Source of the DNA: Dictyostelium discoideum
Taxonomy: Eukaryota
Length of the DNA stretch: 64,000 nucleotides
NCBI GenBank assembly: GCA_000004695.1
Contig: CM000152.2
Span: 5,248,001 to 5,312,000 of the forward strand
Direction of reading: 5' to 3'
Position numbers and translations under genes: made by a program. A model generated the notes under the pieces. The model was not told the DNA's origin. It saw nothing but the letters and a program-made list of their open reading frames with translations, and searched no databases. Positions 10,026-46,049 of this stretch are shown here, in pieces. Position 1 is the stretch's first letter, and each line of letters begins with the position of its first letter.

Positions 10026-13000
10026 TTAATTTTTAAAGATATAGTTTATATGATTTTGAATGATTTTTTCATTAACCATTCCTCCTTCATATGAGTTCAT
10101 TGATTGTAATAATTCTTTAGTTTTCTTTGAAACACCAAATCCATGACCCAAGTTATAAACACCATTGAGTCTATCTAATGAATGGAATGTTTTGAACTTT
10201 ATACATGATAGAATCTTTGATTGATTAATGATATTCTTCCATTGTTCATATTCAACCATTTCACATCCATATTGCTTTTCCAAGAATGAGAATGATGATT
10301 TAATTGATGAAACTTCACTATTTAAACTATAGATATTTAATTGATTTGAAGATGATTTATTCCAACATTTTTCATTTCCAATCATTTTAATTGTATTTAA
10401 ACCTATCCAACCAATTGGTGATGTTAATATGTTTTTATCAATATTTGGATACTTTTTAACTGCATAACATGATTGAATAATTAGTTGGAAGAAATCAGAA
10501 TCATGACCAATACCTGTTTCTTCATGTGAAAATATAATTGGTAGTCTAATTAACATTGATGGAATACCTCTTTTTGCTGCTTCTCTAAATAAATTTTCAA
10601 CAACTACTTTACTTTTCATATAACCACCTGGTAAATTATTAATATTTTCAATTGTTGGTATTACTGTTTCTTCATCAAATTCTTTACAATTTGGTGATTC
10701 AAAGAATACTGATATTGAACTAAATCCTACAATTGGTTTTTGATAATCACCAGTTGTTGAAAGTTTAATCAATTCAATTAAACCACCAATATTTACAACT
10801 TTACTCTCTTCATAATTTGATGCCAAATTAATATCGGCACCTGAATTAATTATTAAATTAATTTGGTTTGAAACAAAACCAAAATCTAATTTTGATAATC
10901 CTAATAATGGTGATGCTAAATTACCAACGATTACTTTAACTTTTGATAATTCAAATTCATTGTGAAAGTGATATAGTTTATGATGTTTCAAATTATTAAT
11001 TATTGCATTGATTGGATTTGGTTCTGATTTTTTATTTCTAATTAAACAATATACAACTGAACAGTTTGGTGATTTAATTAAGTTTGATAATAAATGAACA
11101 CCTAAAAATCCTGTTGCACCAGTTAAAAATACTTTTGAGTCATTTCTAAAATCAATTGGATTCATTTTAATTGCTTGAATTGATTCATCTAATTTCATTT
11201 CATTTCTCCAATATTCTAAACTTGGTGCTGAATCTTTTTTAATAATTTTTTTTGATTTTCCTTTAGTTTCATTTGAATCTAGTTTTTTGATTTGTTCTAA
11301 AATAATTTGAATATTTACTCCAATTGTATTATTTTGTAATTGTTGAAGTGTAATTACATTTGATTTATTTTCTTTATCAATGAAATTCTTTAATTGTACT
11401 GAAGTTAATGAATCTGCTCCATATTCACCTAAACGAATATCTGTGTTGATCTTTGATTGTTCAATTGATAAGAGTTCTGAAATTTTATTCAAAAATTTCA
11501 TTTGGATACTCTCTGAAATACTAATATTTTCACCACCATTATTATCATTATCTTTTTCCTTGATAGAATTTAAAATGAAATCTAATCTTTGGAAAGTTGA
11601 TGTTTCTGATGCGAATTTCTTAATTGAATCATAGTTAAATTTACTAACAATTAAATTTGAATATTTATTTGAATTTTGAAGTTGTAAATCTAATGAACCT
11701 AAAATTATATTTGTTGGAATTGGAATGAAACCTTGATCATCTAACATTTTTGAAACTGAATCATTTCTTGATACGAAACCTGATGATTTAATTGTTCCCC
11801 AATTTGTGCACGTTGATGGTAAACCAATTGATTTACGATATCTTGATAGTGAATCTAATACTAAATTTGCAGAAACATAAGTACATTGGTTGAATGAGCC
11901 AAATAATGATGCAATCGATGATGCCATAACAAATTGTTTTAATTTCCATGATTTCTCAATTGAGATTTCATGTAAATTAATTGCACCCATCGTTTTAGCA
12001 TTATGTGAAATATCTAATGATTCAATATCGATTTCTTCTACTTCTTTAGTTACTTGAGTGAACGCGTAATGGAATATTGAATCAATGTTATCAATATTTG
12101 GATTTTCTAATAAAATTTGATTAATTGATTTTCTCATTTCAATTGAATCACCAACATCTACGATCTTGAAATGGAACTTGGTGTTATTATCCTTTCTTGA
12201 TATTGTTTTATTGATTAATAGTTCTAACTCCCATTTTAATGATGATTTTGATAAAATGATAATGTTTTCAAATGATTCTGTTGGAGGTGAATATTTAATT
12301 AACCATTTTAAGATTTCTAAAATAATACCTGATTGACCTGTAATAATTATATTTTTACCAATTATATTTTTTGTATCAATTTTGAAATCATATTTTAATA
12401 TTGTATGATTCTTTTCATTGTTATCTGATTCAATGAGTTGATTTAATAATCCATCACTACCGATACTACCATTTGAACAACTATGATCTAATACAATTTT
12501 ACCAATATGTTTTCTTTGATTAATATATTCAATTGCTTCTTTGACATTTTCAATCTGGAATGTTGTTATCGGAATTAGTTTCACTTTGTTTTCATTTAAA
12601 GCATTTGAAATAGATTTTAATAATCTTGAAACTACTCTTTTATTAATATGCATAAATTCGATATTATGATAACTCTTGTTAAATTTGAAATTGTTGAAAT
12701 TTAAAAATTCATTGTTATTTAAATGGGTGATTGAGAGATCAATGATTTTACCTCTTTCTTTTAAACATAAAAAGTTTGAATGTGTAAATTCATTTGGTAA
12801 TGTATTTATAATTAAATCTACTCCGTTGAATTTACCAGTTGTACCATAAAGTTGATTTAATTTTGATTTGATTTCATTTACATAGTTTTTATTTCTTGAT
12901 GAATAAATTCCAGTTATGAATGATCCATAATTATCAATTAAATATTGTTCTTTATCTTTTGAACCTACTGTGACGAAAATTGGTGATTTATGACCTTTCC

Positions 13001-16000
13001 ATTTTAATATTTCTAATGTTGCTAAACCAATACCACCTGTTGCTGAGTGAATTAAAATGACTTCATCATCATCGATATTAAAATTACCAATGTTGAACAT
13101 ACCATGAAGACATGTTGAAAAAATGATTGGTAATGACGCTGCTTCAATATGACTAATATTATTTGGTTTATGTGAAACATAAAGTACATCAGTTATAACA
13201 TGAGATGCAGTTGCATCGTGTGATACACCAAAAACATTATCGCCTACTTTAAATTCACAATTTTTATTTTCATCAGATATTCTTGTGATAATACCTGAAA
13301 ATTCGAGACCAAGTGGATTTTTAGATATTGATACATTTTCATCAATAACAACTAAACCACGATAAATTAAATAATCTTTATAATTAATACCTGTTGCTAA
13401 AACTTTGACTTCAATTTCATTCTTTTTTAATTTCTTTGGTTTTGATGCTAATTTATATTCTAAATTTGTTGAATCTAAGAGTGTCATAAAATCATTATCT
13501 TCGAATGAATTTGAATTGAAGTTTGATTTTATATTCTTTTCATTCTTTAATATTTCATAATAAATTGAATTATTTCTAATTATATATTCTCTTTGAATAT
13601 GGTTATTTGAATTTTCAATCAATTGATTAATGATTTTATTTAATAATGATGATATCGATAATTGATTATCAAAATCGATTGAATATAGATTTAAACTTGG
13701 AAATTCATTAAAGTATCTTGATGCACCTATTATTGATGATGATAAATAGTTTTTGATTTGTGAATCAATAGTAATTAATACATGTTTACATGTTAAACTA
13801 TGTTTTAAAAGTTGTTGATTAATTTCAATATATTCCATTGTAATTTGTTTGAAATTATTCATTTCTAATTGTTCCATTGATTTAATAAAGTAAATTATTG
13901 AATCATTTGTTATTGAAGGTAATAGTTGATTAAATTCATTAATATTTGATATTGTTGTTTGTTTGCGATTGGTATGATTATTTGAAATTAATTTCTTAAA
14001 TTCATTTGTATATTTTGAATGTTTTTCACAATAAATGATAATATTATCATTTTTATTGTTTGGAACAACTGTTAATTCATTTGATAATATTGTAGATTTT
14101 TGTGATTGTATTACTTTGTTCGATTTCTGAATTTTGTTCTCATTAAAACCTACACCGATTAAATTATTGATATTAAATCGGATACCAATATCATCTTCAA
14201 TTATTAATAATAATAATCCATTTGAAGAAAGAATATTAAATATTGGTTTGATGATTGTTTCATCATTATTATTATTAATGATAATATCATAGTATGATGG
14301 TTTTAACTGGGTTATATCATTTTTAAAGATTAAACTTGAATCGTGTAAAGTTGGAAGTTTATCATTTGAATTATCAATAATTGTAAATTCTATATCGATT
14401 TCTTGTAAACTATTATCGAAAATTTGATTTAATGCTTCAATGATTTGTTTTGATAGTTCTGAATCTGAAAATGATTGTAAAATTCTAAAAACAATCTTTT
14501 CATTTATTATTGGTTTGATTGTTTGTTTAATAATTTCTGTAACTGTGTTGCTGCTGCCACTGCTGCTAGAAGTTTCATTATTATCAATGGATAAAATATT
14601 AACTAATGAATCTTTACATTGTAAATTATTTGTAAATAGTTCATTTGTAGGATTATTAAGTAATAATTCATCAATCAATGGAAGAGTTGAACGGAATGAT
14701 ATATGTTCTATTTCTAATAACTTTGTACCATCTTCTAATAAAACTAAAACTGATGATTTATAGCTATCTGCTTCCAAGGAGATGAATTTTGCTTGACAAT
14801 AGATATTCTTATATTTTAATTTGTCAGTTGGTATATTTTCAGAATAAACTTTTAAACCTTCAAGTCTTTCAAATACAAACTGGCTTGAATTTGTAATGAA
14901 TCCAGTGATGGCTTGTATACAGTTATCTAATAGCGCTATATTGAAAAATGATTTGTCAAATGTTTGATAAACAGGTTTACCATTGATATCAAAGTTTTCG
15001 TAGTTTATTTGTATTCTTGCAATTGTAAGATCATTGCCAAAGTGAAATTCTTCAATTCCTTGGAAAGTTCCTAAATGAGTGATACCTGATCTTAATTTAG
15101 AGTACTTATAAACTTCTTGTTTGGAAAGGGTAGTAAAATTACATTCTGATAGCAATTGATTTATATTATATTTAGATGAGTGATTATTATTATTATTATT
15201 ATTATTATCTTTTAATGATATAAGTTGAAAGTTACCAGTACATGTTTGAACCCATTGATTTGCTTTATTGTCTTTTATGTTGAATGTAACTCTATAATCA
15301 GTGTTACCTAATTGATAAACGTTGGTTTGTAAAATATGTTTGACATTTTCTTTTAAAACAAATGGTGCTAAAAATTCCAAGTTATTAATTACAATATCTT
15401 TATTTGGGTAAAGTTTCATAATATTATCAGCATATCCAATACCTGGGAAGTAATATTTTCCTTTTACAATATGGTCTTTTAAATATTTGAATGGATTTCT
15501 ATTTATATCGATTATTGATTCATATGATTTGTTATTTGATGAATAGTTAATCATTGATTTACCTAAGTTGTTGAAAACGTTTGGTCCATTTAATCTATAT
15601 TGTTCAAAGTTAATATCAACTTTCCAATAGTATTGTTCATCGAATTGATAGTTTGGTAAAATTATAGTGCTATTGTTTCTAATGGAATTGACATCATCAT
15701 CATTGTGATTGAATTGGCATTTAAAGTTTATATCATAACCTAAACAATAAATTTGTGAAATTGTTGAATGAATTTCATCTAAATCATTGGAGTTCTTTTT
15801 GTTTGTTGATGTTAATACTGAAACTGAATTAAAGTAACTTGATGATTTTGGTATCATTTGTTTTAAATAAAATGATAAACTTGGATGTGGTGAAACTTCA
15901 ATAAATATTAATTCATTACCAAGTTTATTATTTTCAATGTGTTGATATAAATTTGAAATAGTTTGAGAGAATCTGACAGGTTGTATTATATTTTCATAAA

Positions 16001-17275
16001 CATAACTTGAATTGAATGGAGTAGTTTCATGATTAAATAAATTAGTTGTAACTGTTGAAAATGTTGGAATTGTTGATTGTCTTGATGGTATTTCTAATGG
16101 TAAAATTTCATTTTTGGTTGAGTTTTGGCTACTTGTGTGGAATGATGATAATGAACCTAAAAATGCGCAAAAGATATTATTTTCTTTTAAGTCTAATGAT
16201 ATCTCTTTTAAAATATTTTCATTACCTGCAATTACAATTGATGTTGGTGAATTATAGCATGCAACTTCAATTGTTGGATATTTATTTGAATAAAGTTCAA
16301 TAAATTCTGAATGACTGATATTGACTGATAACATTTTACCACATCCATTTGTATTATTTTGAGAAATTGATCTGTGGTAAATTAATTTACAAACTGTTTG
16401 GAAATCTACCATACCTGAACAATATGATGTTGCTATTTCACCTAAACTATGACCAACAATGAATGATACATTGATACCCCAATGTTTGTATAGTTCAAAT
16501 AATGATATTTGTAACATTAATATCGATGGTTGAGCGATTATTGGTTGATGGATTGATATAATGTCATCATCTTTAATTGATCTTAATTTATCTAAAACTG
16601 AGTATCCATAGTATTTACTTAACTCTTTATTGAATTTGTCCATCGATGATCTGAATATTGGTTCACATTCATAAAGTTGTTGAGCCATTTTATTCCATTG
16701 TGAACCTTGACCTCCGAAAACAATAACAATCAATGGTTGATTTCTTTTAATTGTAATATTTGAGGATTTGTCATTGCTTGTTTTAAAGTACTTGTTTTTA
16801 GTTTTTAATTGATCCCAATTACTTGAAATTAAAACTGATCTTTGATATAGTTTCTTTGATTTTGAATAAATTTGATTCTTAACAAACTCTTTGAATGAAT
16901 TTGTAGAAAGATTATTATCATTTATTATTAAGTCTTCATAATTTTTTAATGATTTTACTGAATTGGCTGAAAATGGTATTAAAAATATTTGTTGTTGCGA
17001 TTCAATTGGATAACTAGGGTTATTACCATTTAGACTGATTGAGTGTTCAATAAATTGTGATAAAATTAAACAACAATTTGAGCCAGTTACACCAAAGTTA
17101 TTAATAACCATTGATACTGGTTTTTCATTAATATTTGTAAATGGTATTGCTTCTGTTACAACTTTAATATTCCAATCTTTAAAGTTAATCTTTGGATTTG
17201 GTTGATCAAAATTAACATTTGGTGCATAATGTTTATTTTTAAACATTAAACAACATTTGATTAATGATGCAACAC
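10026..17275 (-). CDS. pksA exon 2: type I iterative/reducing polyketide synthase, C-terminal 2415 codons (AT-DH-ER-KR-ACP-terminal reductase)
   Basis: Acceptor attAG|gt at 17277-17276 joins ...HCEAASG to [16 protein letters not shown], the conserved end of the KS domain. Motifs seen are AT GHSLGE ([17 protein letters not shown]), DH HxxxGxxxxP ([17 protein letters not shown]), ER NADPH site ([21 protein letters not shown]), KR Rossmann ([17 protein letters not shown]), ACP ([17 protein letters not shown]) and a C-terminal TGxxGxxG reductase/epimerase fold ([15 protein letters not shown]). Stop at 10026. Confidence 0.85.
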
Positions 17276-17366
17276 CTAATATTAATATTAATATTTATAA
17301 AAAAAAGAGTTAAAAATTAATATATATATTTTTTTTTTATATGGTTTATAAATGGTTATAGCTTAC

Positions 17367-18453
17367 CACTTGCAGCTTCACAATGACCAATATTAGATTT
17401 GAGTGATCCAATGAGTAATGGTTTAGATGGTGTTGATGTTGTTGATGAATTTAGAGCCATTGATACACCTTCTACTTCAATTGGATCACCTGTTGGTGTT
17501 CCTGTACCATGACATTCTACGAAACTAATATCTGATGCTTTCATATTTGCACTTTTCAATGCTAATTTGATATTATCAGATTGTGATTGTTTGGATGGTG
17601 AATAAAAGTTTGATTTATCATTTAAACCACCTCCATCGACATTTGAACTAAATGAATTAATTACACAATAAATATTATTACCATCTCTAATTGCGTCTGA
17701 TAATGGTTTTAAAATTACAATACCACAACTCTCTGCACGAATGTAACCATCTGCTTCTGAATCAAATGGTTTACATTTACCTTTTTTACTTAACATATTT
17801 AAAAATGAAAATGATTTTGAAACGTATGGATCAAGTAATAAACTGGCACCACCCACAATTGATAGATTTGAAGTACCATTTTGAATTGATTGAAAACCCA
17901 TTGTAATTGAATTCAATGATGAAGAACATGCTGTATCAATTGTCATTGATGGACCTCTGATATCATATGAAAATGATAATCTATTTGAAATGGTATGAAG
18001 AACATTTGATGCGAAATAATTTTCAGATGTTTCATTAAAGTCTCTATTTGTTGTTGAATAATCTAATGTTGAGCAACCAATGAAACAAGATGTATTTGAA
18101 CCTCTAATATCGATTGGATCGATGAATGCATCTTCTAATGCTTCCCATGTACACTTTAATAGTAATCTTGTTTGTGGATCCATTAGGGGTACTTCTGATG
18201 GATTGATTGCGAAATGAACTGGATCGAAATCACTCCATTCTTTTAATGGTAATAATCCACCAAATTTATTATTAACTTCACCGAGTAAATTGATATTGTC
18301 ACTCCATCTTTCTGATGTTTCAACAATACCACTGAATCCATTCTTTAAATTATTCCATAAATGTGAAACACTACCATTATTAATTGATTCTTTACCTTGT
18401 GGAATTCTAAATCCAATACCTACAATGGCAATTTCTTTATTTCCAAATTCCAT
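17367..18453 (-). CDS. pksA exon 1: ketosynthase (KS) domain N-terminal part
   Basis: ATG at 18453-18451 ([18 protein letters not shown]). KS motifs are DTACSSS (active Cys), [13 protein letters not shown] and [10 protein letters not shown]. The exon ends ...AGT G|GTAAGC (donor 17366-17361, phase 1) with a 91-nt intron. In this copy [12 protein letters not shown] is contiguous, so it lacks the KS intron found in pksB and pksC. Confidence 0.85.
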
Positions 18454-18989
18454 TTTCTTTTAATACACTAAAAACATTGATTCCAATAGTTGCTGATTAC
18501 ATAACGAAGGGAATGAGAGTGGACAATTAATTTTTAATCTTTTTATTTAAAAATATGGTGCTTTTTTGTTTTGTAAGGAATGTTAGAAATTATTACTATT
18601 TATTTATTTATTTTTATTTATATTTTAATATTATTACCATAAACACTTGTGTAAATAAATACATACATATAAATTATTTTTGTTAATTTTTTAAAAAGAA
18701 AAAAAAAAATTTTAAAAAAAAAAATTTAAAAAAAAAATGAAAAAAGAAAAAAAGAAAAAAATTATTAATAAAAAAAAAAAAAAAAAATAGAAAAAATATT
18801 ATTTAATAATAATTTAGTGGTGGTTTAAAACAATATATTTAATTTTATACTATATGATTGTTTAAAACAATTTGGAAATTATATTCTTTAATTTTTGGTT
18901 AATTTTTTTTTTTTTTTTTTTATCTTATTTTTTTTTTTTTTATAATTATTCTAATTAATTTAATATTATGATTTAAAAATAAAAAATTA

Positions 18990-20610: not shown

Positions 20611-20802
20611 TATCAATCAATAATCATATCTTAGTTAAACTAATTAATTTTTATAATAATTCATAATATTTGTAAATATTAAATTAAAAAAAAAAAAAAA
20701 AAAAAAAATAATTTAAAAATAAATATGGATAATAAAAATTTAGGTGGTGTAAAAAAGGTGCTTTGGATTTTAAGAAAAATGAAAAAACTAAGATTTGTTT
20801 AT

Positions 20803-23800
20803 TTAATTTTTAAAAATATAGTTTATATGATTTTGAATCATTTTTTCATTGACCATTCCTCCTTCATATGAGTTCATTGATTGTAATAATTCTTTAGTTT
20901 TCTTTGAAACTCCAAATCCATGACCCAAGTTATAAATGTTATATAAATCATCTAATGAATGGAATGTTTTTAATTTTATACATGATAGAATCTTTGATTG
21001 ATTAATGATATTCTTCCATTGTTCATATTCAACCATTTCACATCCATATTGCTTTTCCAAGAATGAGAATGAAGGGTTCATTGCTGAAACTTCACTATTT
21101 AAACTATAGATATTTAATTGATTTGAAGATGATTTATTCCAACATTTTTCATTTCCAATCATTTTAATTGTATTTAAACCTATCCAACCAATTGGTGATG
21201 TTAATATGTTTTTATCAATTTTTGGATACTTTTTAACTGCATAACATGATTGAATGATTAACTGCAAGAAATCAGAATCATGACCAATACCTGTTTCTTC
21301 ATGTGAGAATATAATTGGTGGTCTAATTAACATTGATGGAATACCTCTTTTTGCTGCTTCTCTAAATAAATTTTCAACAACTACTTTACTTTTCATATAA
21401 CCACCTGGTAAATTATTAATATTTTCAATTGTTGGTATTACTGTTTCTTCATCAAATTCTTTACAATTTGGTGCATTAAAGAATACTGATATTGAACTAA
21501 ATCCTACGATTGGTTTTTGATAATCACCAGTTGTTGAAAGTTTAATTAATTCAATGAAACCACCAATATTTACAACTTTACTCTCTTCATAATTTGATGC
21601 CAAATTAATATCGGCACCTGAATTAATTATTAAATTGATTTGATTTGAAATATAATCAAAATCTAATTTTGATAATCCTAATAATGGTGATGCTAAATTA
21701 CCAACTATAACTTTAACTTTTGATAATTCAAATTCATTGTGAAGTTGATATAGTTTATGATGTTTCAAATTATTAATTATTGCATTGATTGGATTTGATT
21801 CTGATTTTTTATTTCTAATTAAACAATATACAACTGAACAATTTGGTGATTTAATTAAGTTTGATAATAAATGAACACCTAAAAATCCTGTTGCGCCTGT
21901 TAAAAATACTTTTGAATCATTTCTAAAATCAATTGGATTCATTTTAATTGCTTGAATTGATTCATCTAATTTCATTTCATTTCTCCAATATTCTAAAGTT
22001 GGTGCTGAATCTTTTTTAATAATATATTTTGATTTTCCTTTAGTTTCATTTGAATCTAGTTTTTTGATTTGTTCTAAAATAATTTGAATATTTACTCCAA
22101 TTGTATTATTTTGTAATTGTTGAAGTGTAATTACATTTGATTTATTTTCTTTATCAATGAAATTCTTTAGTTGTACTGAAGTTAATGAATCTGCTCCATA
22201 ATCACTTAAACGAATATCTGTGTTGATCTTTGATTGTTCAATTGATAAGAGTTCTGAAATTTTATATAAAAATTTCATTTGGATACTTTCTGATATACTA
22301 ATATTTTCACCACCATTACTGTCATTATCTTTTTCTTTGATTGAATTTAAAATGAAATCTAATTTTTGGAAAGTTGATGTTTCTGATGCGAATTTCTTAA
22401 TTGAATCATAGTTAAATTTACTAACAATTAAATTTGAGTATTTATTTGAATTTTGAAGTTGTAAATCTAATGAACCTAAAATTATATTTGTTGGAATTGG
22501 AATGAAACCTTGATCATCTAACATTTTTGAAACTGAATCATTTCTTGATACGAAACCTGATGATTTAATTGTTCCCCAATTTGTGCATGTTGATGGTAAA
22601 CCAATTGATTTACGATATCTTGATAATGAATCTAATACTAAATTTGCAGAAACATAACTACATTGGTTGAATGAGCCAAATAATGATGCAATCGATGATG
22701 CCATAACAAATTGTTTTAATTTCCATGATTTCTCAATTGAAATTTCATGTAAATTAATTGCACCCATCGTTTTAGCATTATGTGAAATATTTAATGATTC
22801 AATATCGATTTCTTCTACTTCTTTAGTTACTTGAGTGAATGCATAATGGAATATTGAATCAATGTTATCAATGGTTGGATTTTCTAATAAAATTTGATTA
22901 ATTGATTTTCTCATTTCAATTGGATCACCAACATCCACACTATTGAAATGGAATTTAGTGTTATTATCCTTTCTTGATATTGTTTTATTGATTAATAGTT
23001 CTAACTCCCATTTTAATGATGATTTTGATAAAATGATAATGTTTTCAAGTGATCCTGTTGGAGGTTTTGAAGGTGAATATTTAATTAGCCATTTTAAGAT
23101 TTCTAAAATAATACCTGATTGACCTGTAATAATTATATTTTTACCAATTGTATTTATTGTATCGATATTAAAATCATATTTTAATATTGTGTGATTCTTT
23201 TCATTGTTATCTGATTCAATGAGTTGATTTAATAATCCATCACTACCGATACTACCATTTGAACAACTATGATCTAATACAATTTTACCAATATGTTTTC
23301 TTTGATTAATATATTCAATTGCTTCTTTGACATCTTCAATCTGGAATGTTGTTATTGGAATTAGTTTTAATTTATTTTCATTTAAAGCATTTGAAATGGA
23401 TTTTAATAATCTTGAAACTACTTTTTTATTAATATGCATAAATTCAATATTATGATAACTCTTGTTGAATTTGAAATTGTTGAAATTTAAAAATTCATTA
23501 TTATTTAAATGGGTGATTGAGAGATCAATGATTTTACCTCTTTCTTTTAAACATAAAAAGTTTGAATGTGTAAATTCATTTGGTAATGTATTTATAATTA
23601 AATCTACTCCGTTGAATTTACCAGTTGTACCATAAAGTTGATTTAATTTTGATTTGATTTCATTGACATAGTTTTTATTTCTTGATGAGTAAATTCCAGT
23701 TATGAATGATCCATAATTATCAATTAAATATTGTTCTTTATCTTTTGAACCTACTGTGACGAAAACTGGTGATTTATGACCTTTCCATTTTAGTATTTCC

Positions 23801-28595: not shown

Positions 28596-28693
28596 CTATA
28601 TAAATAAATGTATATAATAATTAAAAAAAAAAGAAAAAGAAAATTGAAGAATAAAAATAAAATAATAAATGTTTAAATTCTGAATTAACATAC

Positions 28694-29910: not shown

Positions 29911-30030
29911 TGTTGTAGGGAATTTTCAATAAAATTTCACTACAGTAGCGTAGTGAATTTTATTATTTAATTTCACTACAGTAGCGTAGTGAAAAAAAAA
30001 AATCACTGACCCTAAATTTTTTTTTTTTTC
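29911..30030 (+). repeat. Left terminal inverted repeat of the transposon, containing an internal 2x direct subrepeat aatttcactacagtagcgtagtgaa.
   Basis: It pairs with 33237-33356 as a reverse complement. Confidence 0.8.
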
Positions 30031-30420
30031 AAAAAACAAATAAAGTTTATTAAATTATTATCTTTTATTTGATTATTAGTTCTATTTAAGTTTTTTTATT
30101 TTTTTTTTTTTATTTTATTTTTTTTTTTTTTTATTTTATTTTTTTTTTTTTTTTTTGCGCCAAAATTTTTTTTTTTTTTCCCCAACAAAACTTTTTTTTT
30201 TTTTTTTTTTTTTTTTATTTTCATTTTCCCAAAATGAAACAAGATAAATTATTTAAAATTTATTGAAGATAATAATTTTGAAAATACTAAACATAAAAAT
30301 TATAAATTTTTACATGATGAGTAAATATTTTTCCTTACCATAACACAATCATTTTTTAAATTCTGACCAATAAAAAACAGAAACAGAAAAGAAAAATTAT
30401 TTAGAATTGAAAAAAAAGTC

Positions 30421-32345: not shown

Positions 32346-32670
32346 AAACAAGTGGCCAAATCAAAAAAACAAAAAAAACACAAATCAACACAAAAAATTA
32401 AAAAAAAAAAAAAAAATTAAAAATTAAAAAAAAAAAAAATTGAAAAAAATAAAAAAAAATTACATTTGTTAAAAAAAATAAAAAAAAATAAAAAAAAATA
32501 AAACTTAAAAAAAATTGAAAAAACAAAATAAAAAAAAAAAATTGAAAAAACAAAATAAAAAAAAATTTCAAAAAAAAAGAATGATCGAAGAATTAATAGA
32601 TTCGATAAAACTCTTAAGAAATTTAGCCATTGAATATGGCAATGAAGAATAGTTAGATTCAGAGGAAAAT

Positions 32671-32979
32671 TTGACTAAATTCCTCGAAAAAGCAGCCAAA
32701 GTACTATATGTAAATAGTGGTGATGCTTTAATCGTTAAAAATTCAAATATGATGTTAGAAGCATTAGAATTAAAATCAAAACAATTTCACCAACATTGTG
32801 TAAAAACTGTAATAGAAAACGAATTATATTTGGACTTTTTTGTATACAAAGGAAAATGCAAAAACATCAAATGCACCAGAGGTAACAAAGCTAGAAAAAA
32901 TTCAATTGTGTGCAGTGTTTACAGTGATATGGTAAATCAAGCAATTGAACAACTCAGGGAGTTAATAAAAATAAATTAA
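32671..32979 (+). CDS. Small transposon-internal ORF (102 aa, Cys-containing), function unknown
   Basis: ATG-initiated ORF with normal composition between the integrase gene and the right inverted repeat. Confidence 0.3.
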   Translation: MTKFLEKAAKVLYVNSGDALIVKNSNMMLEALELKSKQFHQHCVKTVIENELYLDFFVYKGKCKNIKCTRGNKARKNSIVCSVYSDMVNQAIEQLRELIKIN

Positions 32980-33120
32980 TAAAAATAAATTAAAAAAAAA
33001 AAAATTGAAAAAAAAAAAAAATTAACAATAATAATAAATAAAATAATAATTAAAACAAAAAATAAAATTACAATTTAATAAACAAATAAAAATTGAAAAA
33101 AATTTAAAAAAAAAAAATTG

Positions 33121-33153
<33 letters not shown>

Positions 33154-33236
33154 AACAATAATTATAATAAAAATAAATAAAATAATAATTAAAACAAAAA
33201 ATAAAATTTCAATTTAATAAACTTTATTTGTTTTTT

Positions 33237-33356
33237 GAAAAAAAAAAAAATTTAAGGTCAGTGATTTTTTTTTTTCACTACGCTACTGTAGTGAAATTAA
33301 ATAATAAAATTCACTACGCTACTGTAGTGAAATTTTATGGAAAATTCCCTACAACA
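33237..33356 (-). repeat. Right terminal inverted repeat of the transposon.
   Basis: It is the reverse complement of 29911-30030. Confidence 0.8.
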
Positions 33357-33389
33357 AAGGATATTATCGATTATATCAATAATCATACA

Positions 33390-34379: not shown

Positions 34380-34900
34380 AACAGTTCTTTGTTTTTAATT
34401 AGAGAATTATCGATGGTGTCAATAATCTCATCAAGGAAGGACCCATGGGAATTACGTTCTCGGTAGAAATGTTCTTGATATAGCCAAAGAAACGCTCAAT
34501 GGGATTCAACTCTGGGAATAGGAAGGAAGAAATATCAATTGAACCGAATATTGATTAAACAATTCAAATAGTGCATTTAAAGCTTCGATACCACCGTGAA
34601 TTGGAGCATTGTCCATTACCAATAATAAACCAGGCTTGCAAAATCCACTTTCCAAAAGTTCTCTAACATATTGAAAGAAGTCTTCGGTATTATTGGTTTT
34701 ATCACGGATTTTATACAAACAATCATCCAAACAGATGGTGAAAAACCCATGTAGGTCTCAGAAATGCTGGTGCTATTAGTAACATAAACCGGCTCTCCAA
34801 TTGGTCCAACATCTTTAGATCTCCTTAATTCTAATAAAAAACTTTATTAGTTTTAATTATTTATTTTGTAATAAATAAAAAAAAATTAATAAATAGTTAT
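34380..34900 (-). pseudogene. Tc1/mariner-superfamily (DDE_3) transposase remnant with frameshifts.
   Basis: The minus-strand translation reads ...DFFQYVRELLESGFCKPGLLLVMDNAPIHGGIEALNALFELFNQYSVQLIFLPSYSQS*. Frame +1 continues as YSPELNPIERFFGYIKNISTEN. The FLPxYSPELNPIE box after a DNAP(x)H Asp is the C-terminal signature of Tc1/mariner/pogo transposases. The sequence is broken by at least one frameshift and has no clean ATG. Confidence 0.6.
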
Positions 34901-34982: not shown

Positions 34983-35015
<33 letters not shown>

Positions 35016-35084
35016 AGTACAAATATTTATATTCAATCTAAAATAATAAAATATACCTCTAGAAGAAAATGAGCATTCATTCTT

Positions 35085-35335
35085 TTAGGTTTCATTATAT
35101 TATTACTATTATTACTACTATATTGCTATTGCTATCACTATTGTTACTATTATTACTACTATATTGCTATTGCTGTTACTATTATTACTATTATTACTAC
35201 TATATTGCTCTTGCTATTACTGTTATTACTATTATTACTATTATTACTACTATAATGCTATTGCTATTACTATTATTACTATTATTACTATTACCATTAC
35301 TACTATATAGCTATTGCTATAACTATTGATATTAA
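35085..35335. repeat. Minisatellite built from attactattattactactatattgctattgct(a/g)t(c/t)ac units.
   Basis: Visible tandem array. The overlapping poly-L/Y ORFs are artefacts. Confidence 0.8.
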
Positions 35336-36123
35336 TATTTCTATTTCTATTACTATTATATGTATAATTAATTATATTATTATTTTGGTTTTATTAATTA
35401 TGTTTTTTAAATTGTTTTTATTATTATAAACTAAAAGTGGTTTTTTTTATTTAAAATAAAAAATGATCATTTGATTTTAACCAAAAATATAGATGTGATG
35501 GTTTAATATTATAATGGCCATAGTTTTTATAAATGAACAATTGTATTTCATTTTATTTATAGTTGGTTAAAATAATTAGTGAATTTTTTTAACTGTAAAA
35601 CATTTCCCCCTTTTTTTCAAATAAAAAGAAAATTAAAAAAAAAAAAATCAAATTATATTAAATTAAAAACAGTTGGAGATATTTTCCCACTTTTTTTTAA
35701 ATTAAAAAAAGAAAAATAAAAATAAAATAAAAATAAAATAAAAACAAAATCTTTGATCAAAAATATATTAACTCGGTTGCAATGAAATATTTTAAGTATT
35801 TAAATAGATTTTTTTTTTTTTAACTTTAATTATTTTATTCACTCATATTTTATTTATCTATTATTTTTTTTTTCTTTTCATATTTATTTTATTTATTATT
35901 TATTATTTATTAATATCATTTTCGTTTATATATTTAAACATACCTCAATTTTATAATGGACTCAACCAAACTATATTGTAATCACAAACTCAATAGCAAT
36001 TGCACCAGCCAAAAAGAAGTGGTGCTACACCATGCCAACCATGCCCAGGATATCCTAAAAAATTAAAAATTTGTTTGAGTTGTTCCTTTCATCCAAAGGT
36101 AATTTGTTTATAAAATAAACAAT

Positions 36124-36243
<120 letters not shown>

Positions 36244-36599
36244 TAAAATAAATAAAATTTTTTTTATTTTCAAAGAAATTTTAGTATAAAACATTTTTAT
36301 TGTGTAGTTTTAAATTTTTAAAATTAAAAACAAATAAATATTCATAATAATTAACTTAGAAAGTTTTTTAATATTTTTTAGTGAGTTTAAACCCTTTTTT
36401 TATTTTTTTAATTTTTTTTTTTATGATTAATTTTCTAAAAACGCACAATAAAAAAAAAAAAAAAAAGTAAAAAAAAAAAAAAGTTTGAAAATATAGTAAA
36501 AATGGATAAAAAAATAAAAAAAAAACCAAGTTCAAAATTAATAAAATTTTGCTTTTTTTCGCATATTTATTCTTATAATATATCTTATTTTTATTAATT

Positions 36600-37150: not shown

Positions 37151-37532
37151 CTTTTATTAAAATTTAATTTAATTAATTATATTTTAACATTTTATAAGGT
37201 TTTTTTTTCCCGTGATATCTTAATTAAACAATTCATAATATTGGCAAATATAAAATTAAAAATAAAAAATAAAAAATAAAAAATAAAAAAATAATATATA
37301 AATAAAAAAATAAAATAAAATAAATATGAATAATAAAAATTTAGAAATCTACACAAAAAAAGGTGTTTTGCATTTATGTAGGGCTATATTATTTTTTTTT
37401 TTTTATTCTCAACCCAAAACACCTTTTTATACTTTTCACAAATATAATAAAAAAAAAATTAAAAAAAAATTACTGTTGAATTTTAAGAAAATAAAAAAAC
37501 TAATAAAAAATGAGTTTAAAAGATTTGTTTAT

Positions 37533-40500
37533 TTAATTTTTAAAAATATAGTTTATATGATTTTGAATCATTTTTTCATTAACCATTCCTCCTTCATATG
37601 AGTTCATTGATTGTAATAATTCTTTAGTTTTCTTTGAAACACCAAATCCATTACCCAAGTTATAAATATTATATAAATCATCTAATGAATGGAATGTTTT
37701 TAATTTTACACATGATAGAATCTTTGATTGATTAATGATATTCTTCCATTGTTCATATTCAACCATTTCACATCCATATTGCTTTTCCAAGAATGAGAAT
37801 GAAGGGTTCATTGCTGAAACTTCACTATTTAAACTATAGATATTTAATTGATTTGAAGATGATTTATTCCAACATTTTTCATTTCCAATCATTTTAATTG
37901 TATTTAAACTTATCCAACCAATTGGTGATGTTAATATGTTTTTATCAATTTTTGGATACTTTTTAACTGCATAACATGATTGAATAATTAATTGGAAGAA
38001 ATCAGAATCATGACCAATACCTGTTTCTTCATGTGAGAATATAATTGGTGGTCTAATTAACATTGATGGAATACCTCTTTTTGCTACTTCTCTTAATAAA
38101 TTTTCAACAACTACTTTACTTTTCATATAACCACCTGGTAAATTATTAATATTTTCAATTGTTGGTATTACTGTTTCTTCATCAAATTCTTTACAATTTG
38201 ATGCATTAAAGAATACTGATACTGAGCTAAATCCTACAATTGGTTTTTGATAATCACCAGTTGTTGAAAGTTTAATTAATTCAATGAAACCACCAATATT
38301 TACAACTTTACTCTCTTCATAATTTGATGCTAAATTAATATCGGCACCTGAATTAATTATTAAATTAATTTGATTTGAAATATAATCAAAATCTAATTTT
38401 GATAATCCTAATAATGGTGATGCTAAATTACCAACTATTACTTTAATTTTTGATAATTCAAATTCATTGTGAAAGTGATATAGTTTATGATGTTTCAAAT
38501 TATTAATTATAGCATTGATTGGATTTGGTTCTGATTTTTTATTTCTAATTAAACAATATACAACTGAACAATTTGGTGATTTAATTAAGTTTGATAATAA
38601 ATGAACACCTAAAAATCCGGTTGCACCTGTTAAAAATACTTTTGAATCATTTCTAAAATCAATTGGATTCATTTTAATTGCTTGAATTGATTCATCTAAT
38701 TTCATTTCATTTCTCCAATAGTCTAAAGTTGGTGCTGAATCTTTTTTAATAATATTTTTTGATTTTCCTTTAGTTTCATTTGAATCTAGTTTTTTGATTT
38801 GTTCTAAAATAGTTTGAATATTCATATCAATTGTATTATTTTGTAACTGTTGAAGTGTAATTACATTTGATTTAATATCTTTATCAATGAAATTCTTTAA
38901 TTGTACTGAAGTTAATGAATCTGCTCCATAATCACTTAAACGAATATCTGTGTTGATCTTTGATTGTTCAATTGATAAGAGTTCTGAAATTTTATTTAAA
39001 ATCTTTGTTTGTATACTTTCTGATACACTATTTTCACCACCATTACTATCATTATCTTTTTCTTTGATTGAATTTAAAATGAAATCTAATCTTTGGAAAG
39101 TTGATGTTTCTGATGATAATTTCTTAATTGAATCATAGTTAAATTTACTAACAATTAAGTTTGAATTTTTATTTGAATTTTGAAGTTGTAAATCTAATGA
39201 ACCTAAAATTATATTTGTTGGAATTGGAATGAAACCTTGATCATCTAACATTTTTGAAACTAATTCATTTCTTGATACAAAACCTGCTGATTTAATTGCA
39301 CCCCAATTTGTACATGTTGATGGTAAACCAATTGATTTACGATATCTTGATAATGAATCTAATACTAAATTTGCAGAAACATAACTACATTGGTTGAATG
39401 AGCCAAATAATGATGCAATCGATGATGCCATAACAAATTGTTTTAATTTCCATGATTTCTCAATTGAAATTTCATGTAAATTAATTGCACCCATCGTTTT
39501 AGCATTATGTGAAATATCTAATGATTCAATATCGATTTCTTCTACTTCTTTAGTTATTTGAGCGAATGCATAATGGAATATTGAATCAATGTTATCAATA
39601 TTTGGATTTTCTAATAAAATTTGATTAATTGATTTTCTCATTTCAATTGGATCACCAACATCTACACTCTTGAAATGGAATTTAGTGTTATTATCCTTTC
39701 TTGATATTGTTTTATTGATTAATAGTTCTAACTCCCATTTTAATGATGATTTTGATAAAATGATAATGTTTTCAAATGATTCTGTTGGTGAATATTTAAT
39801 TAACCATTTTAAGATTTCTAAAATAATACCTGATTGACCTGTAATAATTATATTTTTACCAATTATATTTTTTGTATCAATTTTGAAATCATATTTTAGT
39901 ATTGTGTGATTCTTTTCATTGTTATCTGATTCAATGAGTTGATTTAATAATCCATCACTACCGATACTACCATTTGAACAACTATGATCTAATACAATTT
40001 TACCAATATGTTTTCTTTGATTAATATATTCAATTGCTTCTTTGACATCTTCAATCTGGAATGTTGTTATTGGAATTGGTTTTAATTTGTTTTCATTTAA
40101 AGCATTTGAAATGGATTTTAATAATCTTGAAACTACTTTTTTATTAATATGCATAAGTTCAATATTATGATAACTCTTGTTAAATTTGAAATTGTTGAAA
40201 TTTAAAAATTCATTGTTATTTAAATGGGTAATTGAAAGATCAATGATTTTACCTCTTTCTTTTAAACATAAAAAGTTTGAATGTGTAAATTCATTTGGTA
40301 ATGTATTTATAATTAAATCTACTCCGTTGAATTTACCAGTTGTACCATAAAGTTGATTTAATTTTGATTTGATTTCATTTACATAGTTTTTATTTCTTGA
40401 TGAATAAATACCAGTTATGAATGATCCATAATTATCAATTAAATATTGTTCTTTATCTTTTGAACCTACTGTGACGAAAATTGGTGATTTATGACCTTTC

Positions 40501-43500
40501 CATTTTAATATTTCTAATGTTGCTAAACCAATACCACCTGTTGCTGAGTGAATTAAAATTACTTCATCATCATCGATATTAAAATTACCAATGTTGAACA
40601 TACCATGAAGACATGTTGAAAAAATGACTGGTAATGATGCTGCTTCAACATGACTAATATTCTCAGGTTTATGTGAAACATAAAGTACATCAGCTATAAC
40701 ATGTGAAGCGGTTGTGTCACAAGCTATACCAAATACATTATCGCCTACTTTAAATTCACAATTTTGATTCTCATTAGATATTCTTGTGATAATACCTGAA
40801 AATTCGAGACCAAGTGGATTTTTAGATATTGATACATTTTCATCAATAACAACTAAACCACGATAAATTAAATAATCTTTATAATTAATACCTGTTGCTA
40901 AAACTTTGACTTCAATTTGATTCTTTTTTAATTTCTTTGGTTTTGATGCTAATTTGTATTCTAAATTTGTTGAATCTAAGAGTGTCATAAAGTCATTATC
41001 TTCGAACGAATTTGAATTGAAGTTTGATTTTATATTCTTTTCATTCTTTAATATTTCATAATAAATTGAATTATTTCTAATTATATATTCTCTTTGAATA
41101 TGGTTATTTGAATTTTCAATCAATTGATTAATGATTTTATTTAATAATGATGATATTGATAATTGATTATCAAAATCGATTGAATATAGATTTAAACTTG
41201 GAAATTCATTAAAGTATCTTGCTGTACCTATTATTGATGATGATAAATAGTTTTTGATTTGTGAATCAATAGTAATTAATACATGTTTACATGTTAAACT
41301 ATGTTTTAAAAGTTGTTGATTAATTTCAATATATTCCATTGTAATTTGTTTGAAATTATTCATTTCTAATTGTTCCATTGATTTAATAAAGTAAATTATT
41401 GAATCATTTGTTATTGAAGGTAATAATTGATTAAATTCATTAATATTCGATATTATTGTTTGTTTGCAGCTGATATGATTATTTGAAATTAATTTCATAA
41501 ATTCATTTGTATATTTTGATTCTTTTTCACAATAAATTATAATATTATCATTTTTATTGTTTGGAACAACTGTTAATTCATTTGATAATATTGTTGATTT
41601 TTGTGATTGTATTACTTTATTTGACTTTTGAATTTTGTTTTCATTAAAACCTAAATTTATTAAACTATCGATATTGTATTTATCACCAATATCATCTCCA
41701 ATTATTAATAATAATCCATTTGAAGAAAGAATATTAAATATTGATTTGATGATTGTTTCATCATCACCATCATTATTATTATTAATGATAATATCATAGT
41801 ATGATGGTTTTAACTGGGTTATATCATTTTTAAAGATTAAACTTGAATCGTGTAAAGTTGGAAGTTTATCATTTGAATTATCAATAATTGTAAATTCTAT
41901 ATCGATTTCTTGTAAACTATTATCATCGAAAATTTGATTTAATGTTTCAATGATTTGTTTTGATAATTCTAAATCTGAAAATGATTGTAAAATTCTAAAA
42001 ACAATTTTTTCATTTATAATTGGTTTGATTGTTTGTTTAATAATTTCTGTAACTGTATTGCTGCTGCTGATGCTGCTAAAAGTTTGATTATTATCAATGG
42101 ATAAAATATTAACTAATGAATCTTTACATTGTAAATTATTTGTAAATAATTCAGTTGTAGGATTATTAATTAATAAACTATTAAGTAATGGAAGAGTTGA
42201 ATGTAAAGATATACAATCCATTTCTAACAACTTTGTACCATCTTCTAATAAAACTAAAACTGATGATTTATAGCTATCTGATTCCAAGGAGATGAATTTT
42301 GCTTGACAATAGATATTCTTATATTTTAATTTGTCAGTTGGTATATTTTCAGAATAAACTTTTAAACCTTCAAGTCTTTCAAATACAAACTGGCTTGAAT
42401 TTGTAATGAATCCAACTATAGTTTGTGAACAACTATCTAATAAAGCTGTATTGAAAAATGATTTATCGTATGTTTGATAAACTGGCTTACCATCGATATC
42501 AAAGTTTTCAGTGTTTACTTGAATTTTAGATATAATACAATCATTACCAAAATACAACTCTTCAATTCCTTGGAAAGCTCCTAAATGAGTGATTCCAGTT
42601 ATTGATCTGGAATGTTTGTAAACTTCTTGTTTTGAAAGGGTTGTAAAATTACATTCTGATAGCAATTGATTTATATCATATTTAGATGAGTGATCATTAT
42701 TATTATCTTTTAGTGATATAAGTTGAAAGTTACCAGTACATGTTTGAACCCATTGATTTGTTTTATTATCTTTTATGTTGAATGTAACTCTATAATCAGT
42801 GTTACCTAATTGATAAACATTGGTTTGTAAAGTATGTTTGACATTTTCTTTTAAAACAAATGGTGCTAAAAATTCCAAGTTATTAATTATAATATCTTGA
42901 TTTGGGTAAAGTTTCATAATATTATCAGCATATCCAATACCTGGGAAGTAATATTTTCCTTTTACAATATGGTCTTTTAAGTATTTGAATGGATTTCTAT
43001 TTATATCGATTATTGATTCATATGATTTGTTATTTGATGAATAGTTAATCATTGATTTACCTAAACTGTTGAAAACATTTGGTCCATTTAATCTATATTG
43101 TTCAAAGTTAATATCAACTTTCCAATAGTGTTGTTCGTCGAATTGATAGTTTGGTAAACTGATATTGACCTTGCTGTTTCTAATGGAACTGACATCATCA
43201 TCATTGTGATTGAATTGACACTTGAAGTTTACATCATAACCTAAACAATAAATTTGTGAAATTGTTGAATGAATTTCATCTAAATCATTGGAGTTCTTTT
43301 TGTTTGTTGATGTTAATACTGAAACTGAATTAAAGTAACTTGATGATTTTGGTATCATTTGTTTTAAATAAAATGATAAACTTGGATGTGGTGAAACTTC
43401 AATAAATATTAATTCATTACCAAGTTTATTATTTTCAATGTGTTGATATAAATTTGAAATAGTTTGAGAGAATCTGACAGGTTGTATTATATTTTCATAA

Positions 43501-44785
43501 ACATAACTTGAATTGAATGGAGTAGTTTCATGATTAAATAAATTAGTTGTAACTGTTGAAAATGTTGGAATTCTTGATTGTTTTGATGGTATATCTAATG
43601 GTAAAATTTCATTTTTAGTTGAATGTTGACTACTTGTGTGGAATGATGATAATGAACCTAAAAATGCGCAAAAGATATTATTTTCTTTTAAATTTAATGA
43701 TATCTCTTTTAAAATATTTTCATTACCTGCAATTACAATTGATGTTGGTGAATTATAGCATGCAACTTCAATTGTTGGGTATTTATTTGAATAAAGCTCA
43801 ATAAATTCTGAATGACTGATATTAACTGATAACATTTTACCACATCCATTTGTATTATTTTGAGAAATTGATCTGTGATAAATTAATTTACAAACTGTTT
43901 GGAAATCTACCATACCTGAACAATATGATGTTGCGATTTCACCTAAACTATGACCAACGATGAATGATACATTGATACCCCAATGTTTGTATAGTTCAAA
44001 TAATGATATTTGTAACATTAATATCGATGGTTGAGCGATTATTGGTTGATGTATTGATATAATATCATCATCTTTAATTGATCTTAATTTATCTAAAACT
44101 GAGTATCCATAGTATTTACTTAACTCTTTATTGAATTTGTCCATCGATGATCTGAATATTGGTTCACATTCATAAAGTTGTTGAGCCATTTTATTCCATT
44201 GTGAACCTTGACCTCCGAAAACAATAACAACCAATGGTTGATTTCTTTTAATTGTAATATTTGAGGATTTGTCATTATTTGTTTTAAAGTACTTGTTTTT
44301 AGTTTTTAATTGATCCCAATTACTTGAAATTAAAACTGATCTTTGATATAGTTTCTTTGATTTTGAGTAAATTTGATTCTTAACAAACTCTTTGAATGAA
44401 TTTGTTGAAATTTTAATATCATTTATTATTAAGTCTTCATAATTTTTTAATGATTTTACTGAATTGGCTGAAAATGGTATTAAAAATCTTTGTTGTTGTT
44501 GTTGTTGTGATTCGGCAGGATAACTATGACCATTACCATTTTGATTGATTGATTGTTCAATAAACTGTGATAAAATTAAACAACAATTTGAACCAGTTAC
44601 ACCAAAGTTGTTAATAACCATTGATACTGGTTTTTCATTATTATTTGTAAATGGTATTGCTTCTGTTACAACTTTAATATTCCAATCTTTAAAGTTAATC
44701 TTTGGATTTGGTTGATCAAAATTAACATTTGGTGCATAATGTTTATTTTTAAACATTAAACAACATTTGATTAATGATGCAACAC
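37533..44785 (-). CDS. pksC exon 3: reducing type I PKS (AT-DH-ER-KR-ACP-terminal reductase), intact
   Basis: Acceptor aatAG|gt at 44787-44786 ([20 protein letters not shown]). It has the same motif set as pksA, is more than 95% identical to pksA and pksB at the protein level, and stops at 37533. Confidence 0.85.
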
Positions 44786-44864
44786 CTATTAATATTTATA
44801 AAATGAAAAAAAGAGTTAAAATTAATGTTTTTTATTTTTTTTTTTATAAATGGTTACAACTTAC

Positions 44865-45329
44865 CACTTGCAGCTTCAGAATGACCAATATTAGATTTGA
44901 GTGATCCAATGAGTAATGGTTTAGATGGTGTTGATGTTTTCGATGAATTTAGAGCCATTGATACACCTTCTACTTCAATTGGATCACCTGTTGGTGTTCC
45001 TGTACCATGACATTCTACGAAACTAATATCTGATGCTTTCATATTTGCACTTTTCAATGCTAATTTGATATTATCAGATTGTGATTGTTTGGATGGTGAA
45101 TAAAAGTTTGATTTATCATTTAAACCACCTCCATCGACATTTGAACTAAATGAATTAATTACACAATAAATATTATTACCATCTCTAATTGCGTCTGATA
45201 ATGGTTTTAAAATTACAATACCACAACTCTCTGCACGAATGTAACCATCTGCTTCTGAATCAAATGGTTTACATTTACCTTTTTTACTTAGCATATTTAA
45301 AAATGAAAATGATTTTGAAATGTATGGAT
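44865..45329 (-). CDS. pksC exon 2 (KS central part)
   Basis: Acceptor tataG|at at 45331-45330 and donor G|GTAAGT at 44864-44859, identical to the pksB structure. Confidence 0.8.
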
Positions 45330-45427
45330 CTATATAAATAAATGTATATAATAATTAAAAAAAAAAGAAAAAGAAAATTGAAGAATAAAAATAAAATAAT
45401 AAATGTTTAAATTCTGAATTAACATAC

Positions 45428-46049
45428 CAAGTAATAAACTGACACCACCCACAATTGATAGATTTGAAGTACCATTTTGAATTGATTGAAAACCCATTGC
45501 AATTGAATTCAATGATGAAGAACATGCTGTATCAATTGTCATTGATGGACCTCTGATATCATATGAAAATGATAATCTATTTGAAATGGTATGAAGAACA
45601 TTTGATGCGAAATAATTTTCAGATGTTTCATTAAAGTCTCTATTTGTTGTTGAATAATCTAATGTTGAGCAACCAATGAAACAAGATGTATTTGAACCTC
45701 TAATATCGATTGGATCGATGAATGCATCTTCTAATGCTTCCCATGTACACTTTAATAGTAATCTTGTTTGTGGATCCATTAGGGGTACTTCTGATGGATT
45801 GATTGCGAAATGAACTGGATCGAAATCACTCCATTCTTTTAATGGTAATAATCCACCAAATTTATTATTAACTTCACCGAGTAAATTGATATTGTCACTC
45901 CATCTTTCTGATGTTTCAACAATACCACTGAATCCATTCTTTAAATTATTCCATAAATGTGAAACACTACCATTATTAATTGATTCTTTACCTTGTGGAA
46001 TTCTAAATCCAATACCTACAATTGCAATTTCTTTGTTTTCTAATTTCAT
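45428..46049 (-). CDS. pksC exon 1 (KS N-terminus)
   Basis: The true ATG is at 46049-46047 ([15 protein letters not shown]). The ORF track's start at 46064 is a TTG. Donor G|GTATGT at 45427-45422 with a 98-nt intron. Confidence 0.8.

Follow-up and report, generated by a model that had tools for sequence, protein, structure and literature searches.

Three tandem copies of a highly reducing polyketide synthase gene with a predicted thioester reductase domain in Dictyostelium discoideum: a frameshifted middle copy and signs of partial gene conversion

All 40 polyketide synthases (PKSs) of Dictyostelium discoideum have recently been modelled (PMC12828403, 2025), and a characterised function is available for only three of the pks genes (PMC12625978). 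The family, whose expansion in dictyostelids is lineage-specific (PMC3188802), has been described as possessing a single-module iterative architecture, a C-terminal thioester reductase (TR) and adjacent, highly homologous paralogues (Zucko et al. 2007; PMC12828403). An off-loading enzyme follows the acyl carrier protein (ACP) in 21 of the 40 enzymes; two of these are chalcone synthases, and for the other 19 the likeliest assignment is a monomeric thioester reductase (PMC12828403). Figure 4 of the same study, crediting Zucko et al. 2007, marks the chromosomally adjacent, highly homologous pks genes. Pks16/Pks17, an adjacent, 96% identical pair, is a presumed fatty acid synthase (FAS), FAS-like in being an iterative type I enzyme with an inactive methyltransferase (MT) (PMC12828403). 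Here we describe a similar array, found in a 64,000-nucleotide stretch of D. discoideum chromosome 3 (positions 5,248,001 to 5,312,000 of CM000152.2; this whole stretch is called the window, and coordinates refer to it). The window is AT-rich, with a GC content of 16-30%. It probably contains three tandem paralogues of an iterative, FAS-like, highly reducing PKS that releases its product by a TR and whose copies have undergone partial gene conversion.

Repeat finding and BLAST comparison of the window with itself revealed three direct copies of approximately 8.5 kb, located at 10008-18461 (copy 1), 20790-29323 (copy 2) and 37515-46053 (copy 3). The distance from start to start is approximately 10.8 kb for the first two and 16.7 kb for the last two copies, and the gap between copies 1 and 2 is 2.3 kb as opposed to 8.2 kb between copies 2 and 3. 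Gene models were built from the alignment of the three copies and from reading of the splice junctions. Copy 1 (10026-18453, minus strand) consists of the exons 18453-17367 and 17275-10026, the second of which includes the stop codon; spliced in this way, the reading frame is open throughout. It has one intron of 91 nt (17276-17366) and encodes 2778 amino acids. Copy 2 (20803-29315, minus strand) is frameshifted and carries introns at 28596-28693 and 28043-28130, whereas in copy 3 (37533-46049, minus strand), which encodes 2779 amino acids, the introns are at 45330-45427 and 44786-44864. Three head-to-tail minus-strand copies of about 2780 amino acids had been proposed in a first-pass annotation of this DNA. 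The repeat structure and the gene models confirmed the proposal, and the limits assigned to the array there coincide exactly with the stop codon of copy 1 and the ATG of copy 3.

In pairwise comparison the copies are 94.4-96.7% identical in DNA, a figure that varies with the region and with the treatment of gaps, and 94.1-95.8% identical in protein. The earlier figure of more than 95% was thus approximately right, if slightly generous for the pair of copies 1 and 3. The copies can be told apart, as about 440 sites vary among the three. They have diverged, as also noted previously, in intron content, intactness and the length of a polyasparagine tract: the first intron of 98 nt is absent only from copy 1, copy 2 contains a 4-nt deletion causing a net -1 shift, and the tract, which lies inside the dehydratase (DH) domain, has eight Asn codons in copy 1 (15183-15206, minus strand), three in copy 3 and none in copy 2. 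No further PKS fragments were detected in the window by tblastn.

The product of copy 1 matched exactly XP_640415.1/Q54T36 ('Probable polyketide synthase 19', DDB_G0282027), and that of copy 3 matched exactly XP_001733001.1/B0G138 ('Probable polyketide synthase 21', DDB_G0282029), both of D. discoideum AX4. The locus is the annotated chromosome 3 array with the order pks21 - frameshifted copy - pks19. Going by the numbering the middle copy would presumably be pks20. To our knowledge UniProt has no Pks20 entry, which would fit a pseudogene. Pks19 and Pks21 are members of the 40-gene family described before (Zucko et al. 2007; PMC12828403), the genes being the same and differing in nothing; the genes, the TR type of the terminal domain and the existence of near-identical adjacent paralogues are already known from databases and the literature. 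A literature search by gene name, locus tag and accession found no paper specific to pks19, pks20 or pks21. In a search with the full-length protein, the nearest paralogues outside the array were about 48% identical, and the Pfam domain PF07993 (NAD_binding_4) was present on many dictyostelid PKSs.

PF07993 was also found at the C-terminus of the three copies, with E-values between 1e-44 and 7e-47, well over the 20.1-bit cut-off. The TR region occupies 10029-11288 (minus strand, aa 2359-2778; PF07993 1e-44) in copy 1, where the NAD_binding_4 match extends over aa 2413-2644 of 2778, directly after the ACP. In copy 3 it is located at 37536-38795 (minus strand, last 420 amino acids; PF07993 2.8e-46 at aa 2414-2645). 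The NAD(P)H-binding motif TGATGFLG starts at residues 2414, 2411 and 2415 of copies 1, 2 and 3, respectively. The catalytic Ser of copy 1 is in GFSSISV at 2546, and the YxxxK motif in GGYMKSK at 2579.

The best sequence match among solved structures was MxaA (4U7W, 3.8e-32), followed by a Streptomyces PKS thioreductase; GFSS(I/V)SV and GGYMKSK aligned with VSTVSV and GGYAQSK of MxaA. Among 25 dictyostelid homologues Ser190, Tyr223 and Lys227 (numbering of the 420-aa region) and the glycines of the NADPH motif were invariant or at least 90% conserved. An AlphaFold2 model computed from the alignment of these homologues had a mean pLDDT of 86 and a pTM of 0.89. The predicted fold includes a C-terminal substrate-binding subdomain, as in the two-subdomain TR fold, and the top ~25 fold matches in the PDB were all terminal reductase (R) or TR domains (MxaA, CpkC, carboxylic acid reductases (CARs) and R domains of nonribosomal peptide synthetases (NRPSs)), with generic short-chain dehydrogenases/reductases (SDRs) ranking lower. 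The ratio of nonsynonymous to synonymous divergence (dN/dS) of the TR region was 0.26-0.51. Profile searches with the last 420 amino acids, the match to solved TRs and the predicted fold all agree with the assignment made in the first-pass annotation, and they support a TR-type SDR that is predicted to be competent.

The best fold match was MxaA of the myxalamid PKS-NRPS (4U7W/4W4T; TM-scores 0.79/0.85 over ~406 columns). It shares with the Pks19 domain the TGxTGFLG motif, the aligned Ser/Thr and YxxxK residues and the position directly after the carrier domain, but it is bacterial, terminates a modular assembly line and shows an identity of only ~24%. CpkC of the S. coelicolor coelimycin PKS (8V1X; TM-scores 0.78/0.84) and the R domains of CARs (5MSV and others; TM-score 0.73) share both the two-subdomain fold and the predicted NADPH-dependent chemistry of thioester reduction; identity of the CpkC and CAR domains to the Dictyostelium TR is only 17-19%. 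MxaA performs a four-electron reduction and releases a primary alcohol. CpkC and the CARs release aldehydes, in the context of a modular PKS or a stand-alone CAR, respectively. Aldehyde or alcohol release is a prediction for the Dictyostelium enzymes, and a choice between the two cannot be called from sequence. MxaA and CpkC, the closest solved TRs, differ in this respect.

The domains preceding the TR were those expected for a complete reducing synthase. The same Pfam set representing ketosynthase (KS), acyltransferase (AT), DH, enoylreductase (ER), ketoreductase (KR), ACP and NAD_binding_4 was found in all three copies (ketoacyl-synt N and C, KAsynt_C_assoc, Acyl_transf_1, weak PKS_DH_N/PS-DH, ADH_N, ADH_zinc_N_2 for the ER, KR, ACP_SdgA_C and NAD_binding_4). 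There is one KS per protein (PF00109 E 1e-62 and PF02801 E 5e-31 in copy 1), with the Cys-His-His triad present in all copies (DTACSS at 173, HGTGT at 315 and SNIGH at 353). The residue following the second catalytic histidine of the KS (353rd codon, ~17395 in copy 1) is Cys in pks19 (NIGHCE) and Ser in copies 2 and 3 (NIGHSE). The AT (PF00698 E 3e-39) has GHSLGE at 637/640, the ER (PF13602 and PF08240) the motif HSATGGIG, and the KR (PF08659 2.5e-26) the motifs ASSIAS and YVSAN in all copies. All copies also contain the DH motifs HxxxGxxxxP, [10 protein letters not shown] and LLDxCxQ. The ACP of copy 1 (PF23297 E 8e-30, aa 2281-2367) has its phosphopantetheine site, GADSL, at 2315. The whole set of catalytic motifs from the KS to YxxxK, including Dxxx[28 protein letters not shown] of the DH, is conserved in all copies, and the full KS-AT-DH-ER-KR-ACP set reported in the first-pass annotation is right as far as the active domains are concerned.

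The linker of ~420 residues between the DH and ER domains (aa 1226-1650) gave no Pfam match even at E 10. In a pairwise comparison with the MT-bearing paralogue DDB_G0271530, the alignment to the MT core begins only at the GGGT motif, which binds S-adenosylmethionine; at this position pks19 reads SSGSS, and it lacks ~175 residues of the MT N-terminus. By these alignments the linker is a degenerate, lid-less MT remnant followed by a structural KR half. It fits the described class of PKSs without an MT or an MT lid (PMC12828403). A C-methyltransferase is optional in the Dictyostelium Pks family, and the absence of an active one is compatible with membership. The MT remnant and the structural KR half were the one omission from the domain order given earlier. 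As read from the sequence, each copy is a single module, KS-AT-DH-(inactive MT)-(structural KR half)-ER-KR-ACP, followed by the TR.

A synthase of this architecture would iteratively extend an acyl starter with malonyl units. Each beta-carbon would be fully reduced and no C-methylation would take place, giving an unbranched, saturated chain. The TR would then use NADPH to cleave the acyl-S-ACP thioester. The chain would thereby be released not as an acid but as a fatty aldehyde-like product or, if a second hydride transfer follows, as a primary alcohol.

Several points weigh against this reading and the history proposed for the array. The DH gave weak Pfam matches that do not exceed the curated cut-offs (E 1e-5 to 1e-3), so that full reduction is deduced from the motifs. 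The best NCBIfam match of the terminal domain, TIGR01746 (E 6e-47), scored 160.6 bits, below the curated cut-off of 213.35; NCBIfam was made for naming bacterial and archaeal proteins, and Pks19 is a divergent eukaryotic protein. Chain length, starter and two- versus four-electron reduction are not readable from sequence. A search of the literature yielded nothing on the product, the expression or the enzymology of pks19 or pks21. Finally, the similarity of copies within a species could in part reflect independent recent duplications rather than conversion.

The low TIGR01746 score would also fit a C-terminal domain that is R-like but non-reductive or inactive, either a Dieckmann cyclase-type R* domain or a structural SDR, with release by hydrolysis or by a trans-acting enzyme. 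The family survey says only 'most likely' of the thioester reductases (PMC12828403). Several findings oppose such a domain. No copy has lost the [13 protein letters not shown] motif or the Ser-Tyr-Lys triad, and both are conserved to at least 90% among the 25 homologues; the closest matches in sequence and fold (MxaA, CpkC and CAR) are reductive; and the dN/dS values of the TR region are indicative of continuing constraint. R* cyclases are not known to possess the catalytic Tyr and are placed after an NRPS module; no such module is present here. A non-reductive domain is therefore improbable, and a reductive TR is the preferred assignment.

Copy 2 differs from the other two in its reading frame. 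Within the sequence of the KS-AT linker, at about codon 445, it has lost 4 nt of an ATCA repeat (near 27803). Compared with copy 1 the net shift is -1, and the frame meets stop codons from codon 461. Sequencing error was rejected as the source of the frameshift, since an independent de novo assembly (GCA_054883475.1) shows the identical deletion. The four copies that were compared from isolates W and Z and from D. firmibasis do not have it. The sequence of copy 2 is that of a pseudogene, whose translation would end after the KS domain, and a full-length enzyme could be made only from pks19 and pks21. The TR region of copy 2 (20806-21945, minus strand, approximately the last 380 codons) lies downstream of the frameshift and its translation is therefore not expected.

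In the annotation of GCA_054883475.1 the frameshift is bridged: KAM9950444.1 (L001 1-7651) contains a 38-nt GT..AG 'intron', corresponding to ~27780-27820 of the window, and appears as an 'intact' protein of 2762 amino acids (the TR of this bridged model scored 6.8e-47 with PF07993). An intron bypassing the frameshift was rejected, because copies 1 and 3, like the copies compared from other isolates and from D. firmibasis, have conserved coding sequence in place of the 38-nt stretch. Real introns of Dictyostelium are not known to be as short as 38 nt. Since the stretch is coding and conserved in the other copies, the bridged model is likely an annotation artefact that hides a pseudogene. Pairwise dN/dS values were 0.24-0.30, with no obvious relaxation in copy 2. 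This suggests that inactivation of copy 2 was recent, or that homogenisation is still going on.

Near-identical 8.5-kb repeats are hard to resolve in a Sanger-era assembly, and the site of the deletion is a short ATCA repeat. The triplication or the frameshift of copy 2 might therefore have arisen artificially in the sequencing or assembly of the reference genome. GCA_054883475.1 belongs to a Nanopore plus Illumina de novo set that includes the laboratory strain AX2-214 (PMC12745789); it probably represents AX2, judging from its near-identity to the window. This assembly is colinear with the window across the array, contains three copies in the same order and the identical deletion, and encodes Pks19 and Pks21 proteins identical to those of the window. 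The differences are mostly in intergenic homopolymer lengths, with a few single-nucleotide polymorphisms, and the sole structural difference is the absence of 29911-33356. As, in addition, the ~440 differing sites make the copies distinguishable, an artefact is scarcely credible, and the triplication, for which the first-pass annotation had allowed an artefactual origin, can be taken as genuine.

How the copies have remained similar was studied in the distribution of the 440 variable sites. The three possible odd-one-out patterns occurred in runs of up to 32, 13 and 8 concordant sites, longer than in 5000 permutations (p from 0/5000 to 0.0024). The first 1.1 kb is 99-100% identical among the copies, and other segments are 88-95% identical. 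High identity does not extend more than ~20 bp beyond the coding region; the spacers showed no usable colinear similarity, sensitive BLAST being swamped by AT-rich low-complexity matches. Synonymous divergence among the copies is ~0.08-0.09. In D. firmibasis an array occupies the same syntenic slot, adjoining the vault and NSUN2 genes, and comprises two intact copies and a 178-aa TR-only fragment beside the vault gene (L003 7823-8430). Identity is 98.5% between the two D. firmibasis copies but only 86% between these and the copies of D. discoideum. The site runs, the identity gradient, the restriction of identity to the coding region and the D. firmibasis array together support gene conversion.

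High identity within a genome could also have arisen by recent lineage-specific duplications in a birth-and-death process, not by conversion. Copy number differs among isolates: D. cf. discoideum isolate Z has at least five annotated copies that are more than 90% identical (locus tags ACTFIZ_006578 to ACTFIZ_006586), D. firmibasis two and the TR fragment, and PKS fragments occur inside the arrays. In a tree of 12 proteins the five isolate Z copies clustered together, whereas lineages of pks21 type and pks19 type could be traced across the other isolates; lineage-specific expansion has, moreover, been reported for dictyostelid PKSs in general (PMC3188802). However, simple duplication does not produce a mosaic in which discordant sites lie in runs of such length. 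Further points against it are a 5' segment of 1.1 kb that is so much more similar than the rest, identity stopping within ~20 bp of the coding region beside non-colinear spacers at the low synonymous divergence observed, and an array holding the same syntenic slot in D. firmibasis. Duplication without conversion is therefore unlikely, if an alternative of appreciable weight. A 305-aa KS/ACP chimeric fragment was seen between copies of isolate Z (L002 20616-21662).

The evidence for gene conversion thus supports it only in part: homogenisation would be incomplete, and birth-and-death would contribute too. The varying numbers of copies among isolates indicate that copy number is variable and that both processes probably act. 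Concerted evolution, as it had been inferred for these genes, holds for the mosaics and for the similarity of paralogues within a species; it does not hold to the extent that the pks21-type and pks19-type lineages are still traceable across isolates. The array would accordingly be described as evolving by duplication, loss and partial gene conversion limited to the coding region.

Copies 2 and 3 have kept the 98-nt first intron, as have isolates W and Z and the two D. firmibasis copies. Since it is present in every copy examined except copy 1 of AX4, its absence from copy 1 (site 17832) is a precise, recent loss and not a gain elsewhere. Loss of the 5'-most intron with retention of a downstream one is unusual for cDNA-mediated intron loss; pks19 has kept the next intron downstream. 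Three changes would be recent acquisitions of the NC4 laboratory lineage: pks19 lost its intron, the middle copy became frameshifted and a transposon entered the spacer between copies 2 and 3.

The segment missing from GCA_054883475.1 (29911-33356) is a 3.45-kb DNA transposon of the Tdd-4/Tdd-5-like (Ginger2) type. It has inverted terminal repeats of ~269 nt with TG...CA termini, is flanked by a 5-bp target-site duplication, AAGGA (29906-29910 and 33357-33361), and gave matches to Integrase_H2C2 (6e-9) and rve_3 (2e-4). Tdd-4 and Tdd-5 are described as having terminal inverted repeats of 260-297 bp, a 5-bp target-site duplication, TG...CA ends and a Gypsy-like integrase that combines an H2C2 zinc finger with an rve core (PMC2836005). 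The element matches them in its repeats, duplication, termini and integrase type, but at 3.45 kb, versus 3.78-3.84 kb, it is shorter, and the frame of its integrase is broken up among several open reading frames (ORFs). The second assembly has a clean empty site at this position, so the insertion is polymorphic and reflects a recent gain or excision of the element that separates two closely related genomes of the laboratory lineage. The transposon explains part of the unequal spacing of the copies. The same spacer contains a 74-aa ORF (34506-34730, minus strand) with a match to the DDE_3 transposase (E 4.5e-6), which is further transposon debris, and long poly-Ile/Leu/Tyr simple-repeat ORFs are located nearby (35069-35329 and 36055-36294).

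The flanking genes at 47466-61508 (plus strand) and 61986-63923 (minus strand) are of housekeeping type and encode major vault protein repeats, a pinin/SDK/memA protein, an NSUN2-like RNA methyltransferase with a PUA domain, a 1657-aa FNIP-repeat protein and an SNF2/RING helicase; a B-box protein and a ubiquitin-like protein are further products of the flanking genes. No biosynthetic cluster context was found, the flanking genes being without tailoring enzymes, and a tRNA scan of the window found nothing.

In its near-identical adjacent copies, FAS-like iterative architecture and inactive MT the array resembles Pks16/Pks17. Pks16 differs in being highly expressed in vegetative cells, in being reported as essential and in having a solved cryo-EM structure (PMC12828403); for pks19 and pks21 the literature searched gave nothing comparable on expression or product. 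The number of intact copies is two in AX4, at least five in one D. cf. discoideum isolate and two, plus a fragment, in D. firmibasis. A speculative and rather doubtful extension of these findings is that the array is a copy-number-variable, gene-converting locus making an unmethylated, fully reduced long-chain aldehyde or alcohol on a PKS-TR megasynthase, its turnover reflecting dosage or diversifying selection on a lipid signal, ecological or developmental, that is specific to group 4 Dictyostelium. If this were true, the PKS-TR route would bypass the usual route through fatty acid synthase and fatty-acyl reductase. With 40 pks genes, few of which have known products (PMC12625978), a guess at an orphan product, here a fully reduced, unbranched chain that is reductively released, may be mildly useful.

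The details added here, namely the conversion mosaic, the polarity of the intron loss, the recent frameshift persisting in a second assembly, the variation of copy number among isolates and the polymorphic transposon, are tidy but unsurprising, and they leave the current understanding unchanged. The locus provides a small example of tandem megasynthase evolution, in which conversion that appears confined to coding sequence, loss of a 5' intron, a young pseudogene and a polymorphic transposon are found together.

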